Assembly: GCA_965228855.1 (NCBI GenBank)
Contig: CBDDIJ010000002.1
Span: 1,024,001-1,088,000 of the forward strand
Length of the DNA: 64,000 nucleotides
From: Candidatus Obscuribacterales bacterium
GTDB taxonomy: Bacteria; Cyanobacteriota; Vampirovibrionia; Obscuribacterales; Obscuribacteraceae
Reading direction: 5' to 3'
Translations under genes and position numbers: made by a program
The notes under the pieces: model-generated
The model's database searches: none
The model's input: the letters and a program-made list of their open reading frames with translations, nothing else
Told to the model about the DNA's origin: nothing
In this document: one piece after another, positions 7,160 to 54,467 of the stretch
Layout: each line of letters opens with the position of its first letter
Position numbering within the stretch: the stretch's first letter is position 1

Positions 7160-7797
7160 AGAAGGTAGTAAAAAGATTTGGGGCGAGATGGAGTCGGCGA
7201 GGCATTCTTGGGCGATTGCGTTCGTTGGCTGAGTCTGTCTTGTCTATGGGAGAGCGCCGATTTTTTGCAATTGCGTCATAGCCAGATAGCCAAAGGTCTG
7301 GGCGCTAGGTAACCTGAATTCAGGTATTGTCCTCTCCATGAGGGTTTTGACCCCAGAAATAGCACTAGAGAAGATAGTAGGCAAATTTGGGGCGAGATGG
7401 CGTTGGCGAGGCATTCTTGGGCGATTGTGTTCGTTGGCTGAGTCTGTCTTGTCTACTGGAGAGCGCCGATTTTTTGCAATTGCGTCATAGCCAGATAGCC
7501 AAAGGTCTGGGCTCTAGGTGGGGTGAATTCAGGTATTGTCCTTTCCATACGGGTTTTGACTCCAGAAATAGCACTAGAGAAGATAGTAGGCAAATTTGGG
7601 GCGAGATGGCGTTGGCGAGCCATTCTTGGGCGATTGCGTTCGTTGGCGAGTCTGTGTTGTCTACGGGAGAGCGCCGAATTTTTGCAATTGCGTCATAGCC
7701 AGATAGCCAAAGGTCTGTACGTTTGGTAGGGTGAATTCAGGTATTGTCCTCTCCATGAGGGTTTTGGGACGCTCGTCGAAGCTAGATCATATAGTAG
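7151..7797 (+). repeat. Tandem array of about 3 x 209-bp units, each with the 53-bp four-box core
   Basis: Units start near 7151, 7360 and 7569; cores at 7241-7293, 7450-7502 and 7658-7710; ATAGTAG motif at unit junctions. Confidence 0.95.
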
Positions 7798-16683: not shown

Positions 16684-16769
16684 ATTGGGCTTGGGCGAGG
16701 TTCAACTATCGAAAGTAGCGGAGCGCTCCGACCTCTGTTGATCGGGGTGTGATTGGAGGACCCAAGCGG

Positions 16770-16946
16770 GATTCAAGTGTCCAAGCGGGTCGCTGCAAAT
16801 TAGATTGCGGGATTAGCGGCAAAAGCTGCAAACCAATTTGCAAGCGCCTGATTTAGAACCCAAACTAGCCCGATTCAAGTATCCAAGCCGGTCGCTGCAA
16901 ATTTGATTGCAGGATTAGCGGCAAAAGCTGCAAACCAATTTGCAGG
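16770..16946 (+). repeat. Two tandem units of the 102-bp family, inverted relative to 19742-20104
   Basis: GATTCAAGT at 16770 and 16872; core GCTGCAAAT(T)...TTAGCGGCAAAAGCTGCAAACCAATTTGCA is a near-exact reverse complement of the 19.7-kb array core. Confidence 0.92.
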
Positions 16947-17429
16947 CGCTCGATAGCGGAAGAGAAGTGCGATATCGAAAGGCATTAAGTCGACCAGATT
17001 TGTCGATAATGGTCGGCTGGCCGAGCTCCCGCTAATTGTCAAGAATTTGAGTTTCGCCATATTATCCAAAGCACCAGAGCCCACGACATGAGCTCTGACG
17101 CCGTTCGTTTCATGGGGCTAACGTTCAAGGGCGGGTGGAATGAGCTTTTCCAGCCCTGGAAAGGGTGGTGTTTTGCGGTCGGCGCTGGTAGGTTCGAATC
17201 AACTCTATTATTCGTTGCCTAATGAACCCAGGTTTTCTTTAAACGAATATCGCTGCGCTGCACAATTCGGATTAGATTTTTCGCTGAGACGCGAGGAGAA
17301 ACAACCCGTTTTGCGATACCGAATTTTGGTATTACTGGCGGTGCCGGTCGCGGCAAGAGTTGGATTGCGGGTTCGCTATTGTTTCACGGACAGCGGCATG
17401 GTGCCGCTGTGGTAGTTCGGAGATTTGTT

Positions 17430-18485
17430 ATGACTAAGAAGAACAACATCGCTGTTTCCGCCACCATCGCCCGTCTCGGCGTGGTGCTCGAGCCCGATGG
17501 CAGCATCGAGGAAGCGGAAGGGATTCTGAATCCCGCTTGCTGTCGCAGTCGCGACGGCGAACTCATCATTTACTCTCGCAGCGTCGAGAAGGGTAACATC
17601 TCGCGCGTCGGTCTCATCACCGCCTCCGAGGAAAACGGCAAGCTGTCGGTCAATCGTCGCGGTTACGCGCTTGTGCCGGAAGCTGACTACGAGCTGCGCT
17701 CGAAGCCAGGCGGTCAGGGTGTCGAAGATTGTCGCGTCACTTTCGTGCCTGCGCTCGACCTGTATCTCATGGCTTACACCGCCTTTGGAAATGACGGACC
17801 GCGCGTCGCGGCTGCCATTTCCAAAGATGGTTTCAACTGGGAGCGGCTCGGCCCGATGCACTTCCCGCGCCTGCGCAATTGCGCGCTCGACGATAAAGAC
17901 GCGGCGTTCTTCCCGGAACCTGTTCTTTCGCCGTCCGGCGAGCTCTGCATCGCGATGTATCACCGTCCGATGGTGTTCCTGCCTGACGTCAGTGACAGCG
18001 TGACTGCGGCTCTGAGCCTGCCGTTCAGCAAGCGTCAGTGCATGCGCATCGCGTATATCCCGTTCGATGCGGTGAAGGGCGACATCAAAAACCTGACCAG
18101 GGTCAAGTCGTCGCGTCTGTTGCTGCCGCCGAACCGCAAGTGGGGCTCGCTGAAGAACGGCGCCGGCACTCCGCCTGTGCGGACTTCGCTGGGTTGGCTG
18201 TCCGTCATGCACGGCGTCGACGCTGTGCCCAAGGGCGACGGCAAGTGGTCGATGCGTTACAGCGCCGGTCTCGTGATTCACGACATCGAGCGCCCTGACC
18301 GCATCATCTACGAATCGCCGGAGCCTCTGTTCTTCCCGGAAACTCCGGAAGAGCTGACCGGTGTCGTCAACAACGTCGTCTTCCCGACCGGCATCGACCC
18401 GCTGAGTGACAGCGAATTCGATGTTTATTACGGGATGGCTGACTTCCGTATCGGACGCGTTCGGCTGACCGTGAAGGCTGGCTGA
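17430..18485 (+). CDS. GH130/DUF377-like glycosidase or glycoside phosphorylase
   Basis: ILNPA, GVEDCRVT, DKDAAFFPE, YHRP, GAGTPP, NVVFPTG, YYGMAD. Confidence 0.92.
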   Translation: MTKKNNIAVSATIARLGVVLEPDGSIEEAEGILNPACCRSRDGELIIYSRSVEKGNISRVGLITASEENGKLSVNRRGYALVPEADYELRSKPGGQGVEDCRVTFVPALDLYLMAYTAFGNDGPRVAAAISKDGFNWERLGPMHFPRLRNCALDDKDAAFFPEPVLSPSGELCIAMYHRPMVFLPDVSDSVTAALSLPFSKRQCMRIAYIPFDAVKGDIKNLTRVKSSRLLLPPNRKWGSLKNGAGTPPVRTSLGWLSVMHGVDAVPKGDGKWSMRYSAGLVIHDIERPDRIIYESPEPLFFPETPEELTGVVNNVVFPTGIDPLSDSEFDVYYGMADFRIGRVRLTVKAG

Positions 18486-18500
18486 GTAGGCGCGTTAACT

Positions 18501-18561
18501 AAGAAACACCGGGTAAGGGAGTCGGGCTTGAGGGCTCGATTTGCTTACCCGGTGCTTCTTT
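18501..18561. terminator. Bidirectional terminator between convergent genes
   Basis: AAGAAACACCGGGTAAG...CTTACCCGGTGCTTCTTT long stem. Confidence 0.8.
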
Positions 18562-18617
18562 CTCTTGTGCGCAAGGCAACGAGTCGATGTAGTAGCGCTA
18601 AAGGTTCGAGATTCGCG

Positions 18618-19481
18618 TTATTTGACTATCGTTGGATTTGAGATCGGCGCGATGATTATGCTAGAAGTTTCCCGCCCAGATTTCTTTGAACGGCTCGGCG
18701 TCCTCTTTTGCGGAAGAGGGTTCAGTGTCGGAACCTCATCCCAGTAGCTTCGCGTGATGTTTAGAACTGCTGCAGCCGTGTCCTCAGGAACTACTGCAAG
18801 CTTTAGATCGAGAGCTTTGAAGACACTCAAGAATGCGTCCATGTGACAGTTTTTTCCTCTCTCCATAGCTCCAATGGTTTGATGCGGCACTCCGGAAAGC
18901 CGTTCTAGGTCGACTTGCGAGAGATTGAGGCGAACGCGCTGCTTCCTAAGCAGCACGCCAAATTGTGTCATGGGAGCATTGACGCTGCTGTTGCCCCAGA
19001 GTTCGTTGTTTTGTTTCATACATTCCTCACAGTAATCTAGATCGAATTTTTCACAAGCTTCCTCGATTTCAGCAGGGTCTTCGGTTCGTCGCATGCACTC
19101 AGAAGTGTTGAAATGGCTAAAAACGTTCATGCTCCCGAAGTACATGACGCGTTTGTCGATGAGCACGAACTTGTGGTGAAACTTACGTGCATTGAGGTGA
19201 AACCTCCATGACCTCAGAATGTCCAGGGACGTTGTGCGGTTTTGTGCGTAGTCGGACTTCAAATCGTCTGGGAGCGCTTCTTCCATTGCGCCAACGGATT
19301 GTGTCGTTAGGCACGATGCCACCCCTCTGTCTTTGAGAGAACTGAATAGTCGAGAACCATCGGCGAGCCGCCTCGGATGCAGAAATGGGCTGTGGATAAT
19401 CAATCGAGATCTAACGCCAGGTAGGTCTGCTTTGAACGCGGACCAGAATTCTGCCGAGTTTAGAAGTTCGGCTGTGCGCAT
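18618..19481 (-). CDS. Single-HKD phospholipase D-like (nuclease-type) domain fused to C-terminal XRE/HipB-like HTH
   Basis: IIHSPFL, HHKFVLID...YFGSMN (HxK-x4-D-x6-GSxN); FGVLLRKQRVRLNLSQVDLERLSGVPHQTIGAMERG. Confidence 0.88.
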   Translation of the reverse strand: MRTAELLNSAEFWSAFKADLPGVRSRLIIHSPFLHPRRLADGSRLFSSLKDRGVASCLTTQSVGAMEEALPDDLKSDYAQNRTTSLDILRSWRFHLNARKFHHKFVLIDKRVMYFGSMNVFSHFNTSECMRRTEDPAEIEEACEKFDLDYCEECMKQNNELWGNSSVNAPMTQFGVLLRKQRVRLNLSQVDLERLSGVPHQTIGAMERGKNCHMDAFLSVFKALDLKLAVVPEDTAAAVLNITRSYWDEVPTLNPLPQKRTPSRSKKSGRETSSIIIAPISNPTIVK

Positions 19482-19741
19482 AGAAGCAATACCTCGGTTA
19501 TGGATAATAGACGCCAGAAACGAGGACTGCGCCTCATTGCTCGGAAGTATGAGGTAGGGTACGAAAAATTTTGCGGTCGCGGAATCAAGAAGTATTGCCG
19601 GAGATGATGATGGGACGCGAGGTTAGAGGCTCGCGCAGTCGTTTTTTTGATGGGCTTGCAGGAATCTACCGAAAATGCCCATTAATAAATTTGGGCGGTA
19701 CAGTGGTTTTCGATACTTAGAAACAAGGATAAGTGTGTGTC

Positions 19742-20104
19742 CCTGCAAATTGGTTTGCAGCTTTTGCCGCTAAACCTGCAATCAAAATTGCAGCAAGCCG
19801 CCGGGTCACTCGAATCAGGCTGATTTGAGGCGCAAATGAAGAACCTGCAAATTGGTTTGCAGCTTTTGCCGCTAAACCTGCAATCAAAATTGCAGCAAGC
19901 CGCCGGGTCACTCGAATCAGGCTGATTTGAGGCGCAGATGAAGAACCTGCAAATTGGTTTGCAGCTTTTGCCGCTAAACCTGCAATCAAAATTGCAGCAA
20001 GCCGCCGGGTCACTCGAATCAGGCTGATTTGAGGCGCAAATGAAGAACCTGCAAATTGGTTTGCAGCTTTTGCCGCTGAACCTGCAATCAAAATTGCAGC
20101 GACC
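19742..20104 (-). repeat. Tandem array of about 3.5 near-identical 102-bp units
   Basis: CCTGCAAATTGGTTTGCAGC starts at 19742, 19844, 19946 and 20048; each unit holds two CTGCAA-N6-TTGCAG palindromes. Confidence 0.97.
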
Positions 20105-20392
20105 GTTCGGATAGCCTATCGGCGAGTCATTGACGCCGCTTTTGAACCAGGTTAGAAGCAGTGGCATCCTCAAAATAGCGTGCCAGCCGTTGTTTGCGGT
20201 AAATGGATGGTACTAAAGAATTTAGTAGGCAGGCCGCGGAAGCGAAAGGGACAAGAACATCAGGCTTGCGCGCCTAAAATCTTGCCCTCCCGCCCGGTCG
20301 AGCGCAGGTGTCTGGTTTGAACAGACACCTGGCTTTGAACCGTTGTCGTCGTCGGAGTTTTTCTTTTGTTCGCATCAACGCACTTCTCCCGC

Positions 20393-30991: not shown

Positions 30992-31337
30992 TGCCTACGC
31001 CACGATGCCGGAATTTTCGAATTCCGTCATAGCCACATAGCCAAGACAGGAAATTCCGGTGTCCTGTTTAGTCGCGGAGGGGGCCGGGTACTGACACCAC
31101 AACGATTCTCGGACTTCTGAAGATATGAAGGCATATAGTAGCGAGATTCCTGTCTACGCCACGATGCCGGAATTTTCGAATTCCGTCATAGCCAGATAGC
31201 CAAGACGGGAAATTTCGGCGTTCTGTCTAGTTCGGGAGGGCTCCAGGTGCTGACACCACAACGATTCTCTGACTTTTGGAGATATGAAGGCATATAGTAG
31301 CGGGATGGGTGAAGATATGGAGGCATATAGTAGCGAG
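30992..31337 (+). repeat. Two tandem 159-bp units (53-bp core plus tail ending ATATAGTAG) and one extra tail copy
   Basis: Cores at 30992-31044 and 31151-31203; GATATG(A/G)AGGCATATAGTAGCG three times. Confidence 0.95.
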
Positions 31338-47041: not shown

Positions 47042-47306
47042 TCGAGTGTTTTGTCGGTTTTGGCTACGGCTCGTAGACGCTTTTTTGAAAATCCGGCATC
47101 GTGGCGTAGACAAGCGGGGGTGTTCTGGGTCTAGCTGGGAGGGTGAATCGCTGGAAAGACCCTCTATGGCTGGGTTGTGGTCTTGAAGGGAATACGAAGA
47201 AATATAGTAGGGATTTGGGTGGGAGGATGAATTGAATCTCTGGAAAGGCTCTCTATGGCAAGGTTTTGGACTCGAGGTGAGCACGAAGGAATATAGTAGA
47301 CGATTT
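47042..47306. repeat. Mosaic repeat locus: 74-bp-family fragment, inverted 53-bp core and two tails with an 89-bp period
   Basis: TCGAGTGTTTTGTC at 47042; core at 47060-47112 (- strand); GAATC...AATATAGTAG at 47145 and 47234. Confidence 0.85.
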
Positions 47307-54100: not shown

Positions 54101-54467
54101 CTACTATATGCCCTCGTTAGGGCTGATGGGCGAAAGTTTTACAGAGTAAGGATCCAGGGAGTCGGTCCCTTTAGGGATGACTTGAAAAGTGGTTGTTTGG
54201 CTACGCCAAGATGACGGAATTCGCAATTTTCGGCATTCTGGCGTAGACAACTTTCCCGAGCGGACCGGCCGTTCATCGGAACTGATGATTCGCATGGGGT
54301 GCCAGAGCGTGAGGAAGATGTCTATCCTGCGATGCCAGATTCCGCGAATTCCGTCATCGTGGCGTAGCCAAAACGCTTTTTTTCAAGGACTCTCTTAAGT
54401 GTTGATCCTGCAGATGCCGACAGTATGGGGAGTCTGGGCAGATCAACGGAGCTAGATCATATAGTAG
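54101..54467. repeat. Back-to-back inverted pair of 53-bp core plus ATATAGTAG modules
   Basis: Cores at 54197-54249 (-) and 54319-54371 (+); CTACTATAT starts at 54101 and ATATAGTAG ends at 54467, each 96 nt from its core. Confidence 0.88.

Follow-up and report, generated by a model that had tools for sequence, protein, structure and literature searches.

The described systems closest to the one reported here are the REPtrons, in which the gene of an enzyme (RAYT, or TnpA-REP) lies beside cognate palindromic repeats (repetitive extragenic palindromes, REPs, with BIMEs and REPINs). PMC8266576 and PMC3733652 describe these repeats as scattered between genes, frequently as tandem inverted pairs; a genome may have several enzyme-repeat pairs, each enzyme co-evolves with its repeat, there are no matches on plasmids or viral contigs, and insertion sequence (IS) elements insert into the repeats. 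RAYT itself is a tyrosine enzyme of the HUH/Y1 type, and its substrate is a hairpin of single-stranded DNA tagged with GTAG on the 5' side. According to PMC8266576, the way in which REP-like repeats spread is unresolved. A second group for comparison comprises the single-HKD nucleases of the phospholipase D (PLD) type (Nuc, NucT, Zucchini, BfiI), which according to PMC2853115 and PMC2475615 form a dimer around one active site and cleave via a covalent phosphohistidine intermediate, one that BfiI can also resolve onto a 3'-hydroxyl by transesterification. Here we analyse a window (the whole stretch of DNA studied, 64,000 nucleotides) from Candidatus Obscuribacterales bacterium (assembly GCA_965228855.1, contig CBDDIJ010000002.1, forward-strand positions 1,024,001 to 1,088,000), in which a gene for a PLD domain fused to an XRE-type helix-turn-helix (HTH) domain, hereafter PLD-HTH, lies between two arrays of paired palindromes. 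Leaving the enzyme itself aside, the system shares the REPtron traits listed above, though with few phylogenetically independent pairs behind the co-evolution. We propose, at a probability of roughly 0.6 and from sequence comparison, that the window arrays are copies of a genome-wide paired-palindrome family and that the PLD-HTH protein, a predicted nuclease, binds and spreads these palindromes.

The locus is laid out as follows, G007 being a close relative (a strain about 95% identical to the window's own genome, G000) and L243 a metagenome locus encoding a 95%-identical PLD-HTH protein.

16770..16946, plus strand: left array of repeat family A, two palindrome pairs (16793-16843, 16895-16945), against four in G007
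17430..18485, plus strand: GH130-family glycoside phosphorylase/hydrolase gene (PF04041, E 1.7e-23)
18501..18560, no strand: hairpin with 27-bp arms, probably a terminator, where the GH130 and PLD-HTH genes converge
18618..19481, minus strand: PLD-HTH gene, 287 aa (PLDc_2, E 5.9e-5, below the cut-off; HTH_3, E 9.8e-7)
H102, K104, D109, G116-S117-x-N119 and E128 of its product: single-HKD PLD nuclease domain
C-terminal to these: CxxC at 151/154 and the XRE helix-turn-helix, with recognition helix 200-207 and His200 as its first residue
19742..20104, minus strand: right array of family A, four pairs (19743-19793, 19845-19895, 19947-19997, 20049-20099) with a period of 102, against five in G007; also present in L243

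All 12 window matches to CTGCAA-N6-TTGCAG (at most one mismatch) fall inside the two arrays, with a chance expectation of 0.25 and none of 100 shuffles reaching 12. The unit of the right array is CTGCAA-N6-TTGCAG, N15, CTGCAA-N6-TTGCAG, and the array, which lies 262 bp upstream of the PLD-HTH start, is the cognate array of that gene. An earlier note on this DNA had described two inverted palindrome arrays enclosing a GH130 and a PLD-HTH gene, with a core conserved between the arrays and a diverged remainder. Both observations hold: Pfam recovers the domains, the arrays are mutually inverted (81% over 182 nt), and their representative units agree at 46/51 core but just 30/51 linker positions. 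The layout is not an assembly artefact, since contigs of an independent public run carry the GH130 and PLD-HTH genes and break exactly at both arrays; an informative joint was not found in the contigs of sequencing runs, and no RNA run was listed as carrying the sequence.

The window arrays belong to a family of 46 paired units in 11 arrays in G000, the palindromes always 33 bp apart (the count omits two 5-mismatch matches on contig C3 and one overlapping match). Exact palindromes number 58 at spacing 6 and 0-3 at most other spacings, with 15 at a linker spacing of 15, and a strict de novo scan of the genome yielded only family A as a near-perfect doublet family. Nine arrays lie outside the window, adjoining unrelated genes; six of the 11 are in convergent, four in tandem and one in divergent intergenic regions, and four share their region with a doublet of another family, C. 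The contig on the terminus side has no unit (dnaA lies at C2:793 kb), and the bases 5' of the units vary. Among 41 genomes, arrays of these units occur in G000 and G007 only, and in a scan for the exact doublet, among the 80 of 109 loci listed, arrays appeared solely in records of one close relative, the other loci having 1-4 matches in unrelated taxa. Three arrays of G007 are missing at the corresponding G000 site and one of G000 is missing in G007, four others being not comparable because the G007 assembly may omit part of the G000 origin region. Coding repeats were considered and rejected (open frames run through some arrays, but 101 and 103 are found as periods in addition to 102), as was a known RNA family, for which there was just a chance-level microRNA match.

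This dispersal bears on the interpretation given in the earlier note, a composite element with the inverted arrays as its ends and the GH130 gene as cargo or, failing that, an autoregulated defence/toxin module. The two arrays are each other's best match, narrowly (the core value is tied and linker values range over 14-30), the right array is placed upstream of the start codon, and the PLD domain weakly matches those of Mokosh and DrmC, with which it shares its subtype. The bracket with cargo nevertheless fails, because these arrays are two of 11, a 95%-identical homologue lacks the left one and GH130 is an ordinary neighbour. In L243 the right array and GH130 are kept and a C-type doublet stands where the left array would be, so that the left array is a dispersed copy and not a fixed end; the GH130 orthologue of another genome, G006 (84% identical), is array-free over some 800 bp of upstream and 365 bp of downstream sequence. 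The GH130 gene is thus a bystander (its GC content at third codon positions is 0.75, against 0.54 for the PLD-HTH gene), and the cargo claim is largely refuted. Local repeats on both sides accompany only 2 of 58 PLD-HTH homologues, and similarity between left and right flanks is a weak signal (6/58, against 16/393 controls). Neither a target duplication (by eye) nor near-identical copies were found, the paralogues being 20-30% identical, and the empty sites that the note suggested looking for in related genomes yielded no clean case, strain differences being replacements.

As the note had stated, no methyltransferase or HipA gene is adjacent: the seven neighbouring open reading frames (ORFs) scanned against Pfam encode GH130, ClpP, SDR, patatin and MoxR proteins and two without family. 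Type II restriction-modification was rejected for want of a cognate methyltransferase among these seven, and HipBA toxin-antitoxin because the HipB-like model TIGR03070 scores 34.8 bits against a cut-off of 71.65 (the HTH is of the PF01381 type) and none of the seven is HipA. PADLOC matches are weak and single-domain; Mokosh and DISARM were set aside because the PLD matches come with no helicase or defence-operon partner and the gene stands alone. The composite or defence interpretation as a whole is therefore very improbable; what stands of it is the suggestion that the PLD-HTH protein binds, and possibly propagates, its own palindromes.

Paired palindromes recur beside homologous genes. We took 60 regions around matches in relatives, removed 5 orthologous duplicates and scored 58 full-flank genes for a doublet, defined as two 16-20-bp palindromes 29-36 bp apart, with a detector of four half-sites covering 330 bp upstream and 230 bp downstream of the gene; the window unit has 0 mismatches in it. 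A doublet (at most two mismatches) lay beside 22 of the 58 PLD-HTH genes and beside 6 of 170 sampled neighbouring genes (Fisher p 3e-10), at least three of these six being copies of a cognate doublet. For controls with much non-coding flank the figure was 4/65 (Fisher p 2e-5). With three mismatches allowed, doublets adjoined 28 PLD-HTH genes and 13 neighbours, and long hairpins (at least 17/20) adjoined 29 and 10. The doublets were downstream of the PLD-HTH gene in 14 cases and upstream in 9, which also speaks against the composite or autoregulated-module interpretation.

Each gene has its own half-site and, for the doublets tested, further copies are nearly confined to genomes with PLD-HTH genes. 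Clustering of the intergenic DNA of G000 gave three further quasi-palindromic families, B, C and D, with a box-spacer-box geometry similar to that of A, and three PLD-HTH genes of this genome each adjoin a different family: the gene at 67 kb is 237 bp from a B copy, that at 103 kb is 38 bp from a C copy and the window gene is the stated 262 bp from A, every other gene-family distance being at least 3.4 kb. The C pattern has 132 copies in G000, 93 in G007 and 0-4 in the other 102 genomes. Likewise, a GATTGC doublet has 47 matches in G013 and none in four other genomes, a TATAGC doublet 41-45 in G079 and none in four others, and a GATCTC doublet is found on four contigs of G077 only (5 genomes). 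A TATGC doublet has 14 copies in G041 and 16 in G043, both with PLD-HTH genes, and 1 in the congeneric G042, which has no PLD-HTH match. In G079 (loci L275-L283) the unit is a palindrome quadruplet spaced 31-33-31 bp and not a doublet. Repeats scattered independently of the gene had been named in the earlier note as a point against its own proposal; the repeats are literally scattered, yet at genome level the scatter depends on the gene, as that of REPs does on RAYT.

The same note had asked that homologues be examined for flanking palindromes that co-vary with the recognition helix, and the outcome was positive, in the doublets beside 22 genes, in a link to residue 200 and in held-out loci. 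We scored 30 loci with doublets at up to three mismatches, pairing 245 protein columns with 7 bases (3-9 bp from the palindrome centre), 1,715 pairings in all. The top pairing joined residue 200 to the base 7-7.5 bp from the centre (z 11, the next being 6.0), with Gln occurring together with A in 15 of 18 cases and Arg with G in 8 of 8. Residue 200 opens helix 200-207, the recognition helix of the predicted model, and Gln-adenine and Arg-guanine are classical protein-DNA contacts. All three held-out loci with a doublet fit the rule, three further held-out loci having none. In these alignments the first residue of the predicted recognition helix thus tracks one base of the site. Because the adjoining doublet tracks the DNA-reading helix and is scattered genome-wide, PLD-HTH proteins likely bind and spread their own repeats: binding appears highly probable, and active spreading the better bet, at a lower level of confidence.

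The doublets come with further, outward-facing motifs. C doublets have (T)ATAGTAG facing outward at 67-69, 77-81, 88-93 or 99-104 bp, distances that increase by about one helical turn each; the motif (at most one mismatch) is present in 177 of 264 C-doublet arms and, conversely, 183 of 247 intergenic CTACTAT sites of the origin region have a C doublet 55-125 bp on. A terminator-like host hairpin often follows it (by eye). G041, of a different genus and with a different doublet, has a similar motif spacing. In 12 of 48 alignments between distant loci, the common arm stops at TAGTAG +0 to +3 (most of the remaining alignments are matches of IS110 or of tandem units), and the gene at 103 kb shows a full layout of motif, 91 bp, doublet, gene, doublet, 79 bp, motif. 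Tandem periods cluster around multiples of 10.4 bp (R 0.53 for 67 periods, against R 0.07 for 40 in control arrays), a comparison weakened by the fact that periods from other genomes were chosen by eye and the A periods are not independent. C-doublet spacers have a modest excess of long-hairpin pairing, with none at variable core positions. Given the phased motif spacing, the helical periods and a spacer pairing that is modest and absent at variable core bases, the geometry appears more compatible with a nucleoprotein complex on double-stranded DNA than with a single-stranded hairpin. The corresponding features in the window are listed below.

7241..7709, no strand: three C-type doublets, each with TAGTAG 82 bp beyond; the C-type cognate is the paralogue at C2:103 kb
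16703..16709, minus strand: putative degenerate arm-end motif ATAGTTG, 83 bp outside the left array and immediately 3' of the terminator-like hairpin of the upstream gene
20223..20228, plus strand: outward-facing TAGTAG about 123 bp past the last doublet, a putative arm end judging from the 11-bp series at C-type doublets
30992-31202, 47061-47112 and 54198-54370: other C-type copies

The placement of the doublets in the genome raises the main rival to our explanation, namely that they are bound but serve the host, organising or protecting the origin in a centromere- or chromatin-like manner or marking the 3' ends of genes, while gene conversion and slippage spread them passively. In G000, 167 of 201 C doublets lie from 750 kb left to 500 kb right of dnaA; in G041, with dnaA at 2.83 Mb, the PLD-HTH genes are at 2.86 and 2.99 Mb and 13 doublets at 2.28-3.06 Mb, and the PLD-HTH gene of G012 is 8 kb from dnaA. 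C doublets near the origin are in 54 of 75 convergent but only 11 of 110 divergent intergenic regions, so they are not operators. A host role would also suit the best fold match, the chromatin protein TrmBL2, and the purifying selection on the PLD-HTH gene (ratio of nonsynonymous to synonymous rates, dN/dS, 0.11-0.16 against two strains). It sits poorly with up to 10 divergent paralogues per genome, with the lack of any PLD-HTH match in 47 of 103 genomes of the family, with copy boundaries sharp at TAGTAG and with near-invariant catalytic residues. Nor is it expected that genes be gained or lost between close (~95%-identical) strains. Genes and arrays are in fact gained, lost, swapped and tandemly amplified between such strains: G000 and G007 together have 6 distinct PLD-HTH genes, 3 of them confined to one strain, and at two strain-specific sites the other strain has a C-type doublet, with outer ends in common at the 1,002-kb site. 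We consider a host role with passive spread unlikely. The origin-proximal ~1.2 Mb of G000 (C2:50 kb-1.15 Mb and the end of C5) has a GC content of 0.52-0.60, against 0.50, and few tRNAs; its genes adjoin intergenic repeats ten times more often (153/813) than genes elsewhere in G000 (87/4,699).

It may also be asked whether the doublets are moved by some other enzyme (a recombinase of the IS110 or tyrosine type, or an unknown transposase), with the PLD-HTH genes as passengers or maintenance (addiction) genes co-inherited with them. G000 does have 17 tyrosine-recombinase matches and IS110-type copies, at the positions listed here.

C2:197 kb and 987 kb, C5:861 kb and 1,461 kb; C2:775, 859 and 1,121 kb: IS110-type copies in G000

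A shared mover would also suit the TAGTAG arm end common to several doublet types and the persistence of D-type copies in G000 without a D-type gene. Co-inheritance, however, would tie the doublet to any clade-marking residue, whereas the signal peaks at the first residue of the recognition helix with the expected chemistry; IS110 copies lie inside doublets, as parasites, and key genomes have no Y1 enzyme. RAYT/IS200 was rejected as the mover in G000, where neither PF01797 nor NF047646 has a match, and no Y1/RAYT was found in G007, G013, G016, G041, G043, G077 or G079. Y1 matches occur in 15 of 104 family genomes, including G087, G107 and G111, which also carry PLD-HTH genes. We regard a separate mover as quite improbable, less so only than the bracket with cargo.

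Our best reading remains a REP/RAYT-like system that would be run by an HKD nuclease with an HTH reading double-stranded DNA. One dimer could read each 17-19-bp palindrome through its two recognition helices, two dimers sitting three helical turns apart on the same DNA face. The bound complex would then loop to a second site at an integral number of helical turns, which at loci with a TAGTAG arm end would be that motif, and nick it via a phosphohistidine intermediate, followed by strand transfer or by repair of the break from another copy. Such a process should copy doublet-plus-arm units and leave sharp arm ends, tandem arrays with helical periods and swaps of doublet type. More tentatively, and with rather less than even odds, this may be a new class of mobile element with a phosphohistidine (PLD/HKD) transposase-recombinase guided by an XRE HTH. 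A full element would be arm-doublet-gene-doublet-arm, as at C2:103 kb of G000, and a solo one arm-doublet-arm; two dimers three turns apart would reach the end motif, and one recognition-helix residue would help set the target.

Several observations weigh against a PLD-HTH protein that binds and spreads its doublets. Thirty of the 58 PLD-HTH genes have no doublet even at three mismatches, and near the origin the background is high, 92 of 224 stand-alone genes adjoining a local repeat. Some doublets are hardly dispersed: TTACC is found in 2 of 3 congeners, at just 1-2 exact loci in each, and the TATTCC doublet of G016 has just 2 copies. G016 also has 2 loci of the TATGC type. About 20 D-type copies are present in G000 though the D-type gene is in G007 only. 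As to the helix, three Gln proteins depart from the Gln-A rule, the window protein with His200 is outside the Gln-A/Arg-G rule altogether, and the tree holds 6 Gln/Arg changes and four independent pairs, of which only 2 are well supported, so that a phylogenetic sign test is powerless. As to the arms, phased TAGTAG is missing at most A arrays and at the arrays of G079, both arms are common in just 1 of 47 locus pairs, and no clean empty site or target duplication was found. Finally, two IS110-type elements insert into C doublets (one within, one at the outer end), as some IS do in REPs.

The system differs from REPtrons in its enzyme, an HKD nuclease fused to an XRE HTH, in what is conserved, base identities and helical spacing, and in that the PLD-HTH genes themselves come and go between strains; the palindrome stem has no GTAG tag, and TAGTAG is found some 57-123 bp away instead. 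With Nuc, NucT, Zucchini and BfiI the protein shares the HxK(x4)D, GSxN and Glu motifs and the fold, and the same dimeric, phosphohistidine-forming active site would be expected. Nuc is a non-specific nuclease, BfiI has a different DNA-recognition domain and a methyltransferase partner, and we know of no single-HKD PLD nuclease tied to a dispersed repeat family. XRE/Cro-type proteins (HipB, 434 repressor, restriction-modification controllers) have the same HTH type, 16-20-bp palindromic sites and two sites about three turns apart; here the HTH is fused to an intact nuclease, HipA is lacking, and the sites are mostly at gene 3' ends and not promoters. TrmB and TrmBL2 combine the same two domain types, an HTH and a PLD-like domain, with the domain order reversed relative to PLD-HTH; the PLD-like domain of TrmB is non-catalytic.

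PLD-HTH genes with their own dispersed palindrome doublets are apparently an undescribed family: no description was found in the literature searched (subscription papers mostly outside its scope), nor any report there of phosphohistidine/PLD chemistry for mobile DNA. The chemistry of known transposases and recombinases is of the DDE, HUH/tyrosine, serine or DEDD type, and to our knowledge phosphohistidine strand joining has been shown only as the BfiI side reaction; a PLD enzyme propagating repeats would add a phosphohistidine route and would have reached a REP-like genome pattern independently. With double-stranded sites and a visible protein-DNA code, the question of spreading is directly testable here. 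If this is a new class of mobile element, its more than 100 natural variants would amount to a ready-made collection of site-specific nickases or joiners whose sites are long and readable. The system would also account for much of the intergenic DNA in an uncultured lineage, one doublet type alone being present in 54 of 75 convergent near-origin regions. Even without propagation, dozens of matched protein-site pairs form a natural dataset on HTH specificity.

Of 107 genomes of the order, a profile search matched 57, which all belong to the family of the host and have up to 10 matches each, some of these being the PLD domain of longer proteins; at E 1e-40 nothing was found in 300 other genomes of the phylum, and a representative library gave 294 clusters at E up to 1e-30. 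G000 has five paralogues. The HKD active site is complete and near-invariant across the family (H in 224, K in 223, D in 225, N in 225 and E in 214 of 225 aligned rows, some of them duplicated), as is the CxxC. The AlphaFold model of the window protein (pLDDT 75.8) matches TrmBL2 best, and also Zucchini, NucT and Nuc; a homodimer prediction scored 0.26 against a mark of 0.42, and a protein atlas had no match at 0.9 or above. No relative was found on plasmids or on viral contigs, the viral scan using one peptide pattern. PLD-only genes stand in tandem with a PLD-HTH gene at L190 and at G003:C770 (L175), and the PLD subtype also occurs within ORFs of about 900-950 aa from other genera, which are a possible source of the domain. 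At L189, L190, L212, L216, L229 and L238-L241, CTGT-N8-ACAG/ACGG lies about 45-75 bp upstream of the start; we take it to resemble the proteobacterial LexA box, and SOS control is possible. Another set of PLD-HTH genes has TTGAACTTTTT in common upstream.

Elsewhere in the window, the segment 9936-14539 comprises a MoxR AAA ATPase gene and, after it, ORFs resembling DUF58, vWA and TPR proteins (by eye). Outside it, at C2:298,981-299,043 of G000, CTACTAT and ATAGTAG lie 48 bp apart with no doublet between them, possibly a deleted or empty element. There are 19 copies of the palindrome ACCGATATCGGT on C3, 21 on C5 and none on C2, in tight clusters (C3:0.9-1.1 and 1.4-1.6 Mb, C5:1.1-1.2 Mb), one of them at the GC-skew switch of C3; these are possibly terminus-organising sites or island markers. 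A GC content of 0.66 at C2:1-50 kb, and of 0.29-0.66 along contig C4, suggests contamination or chimeric joins. At C3:724.5-728.0 kb, 21 tRNA genes follow one another on a single strand, some with odd anticodon loops.

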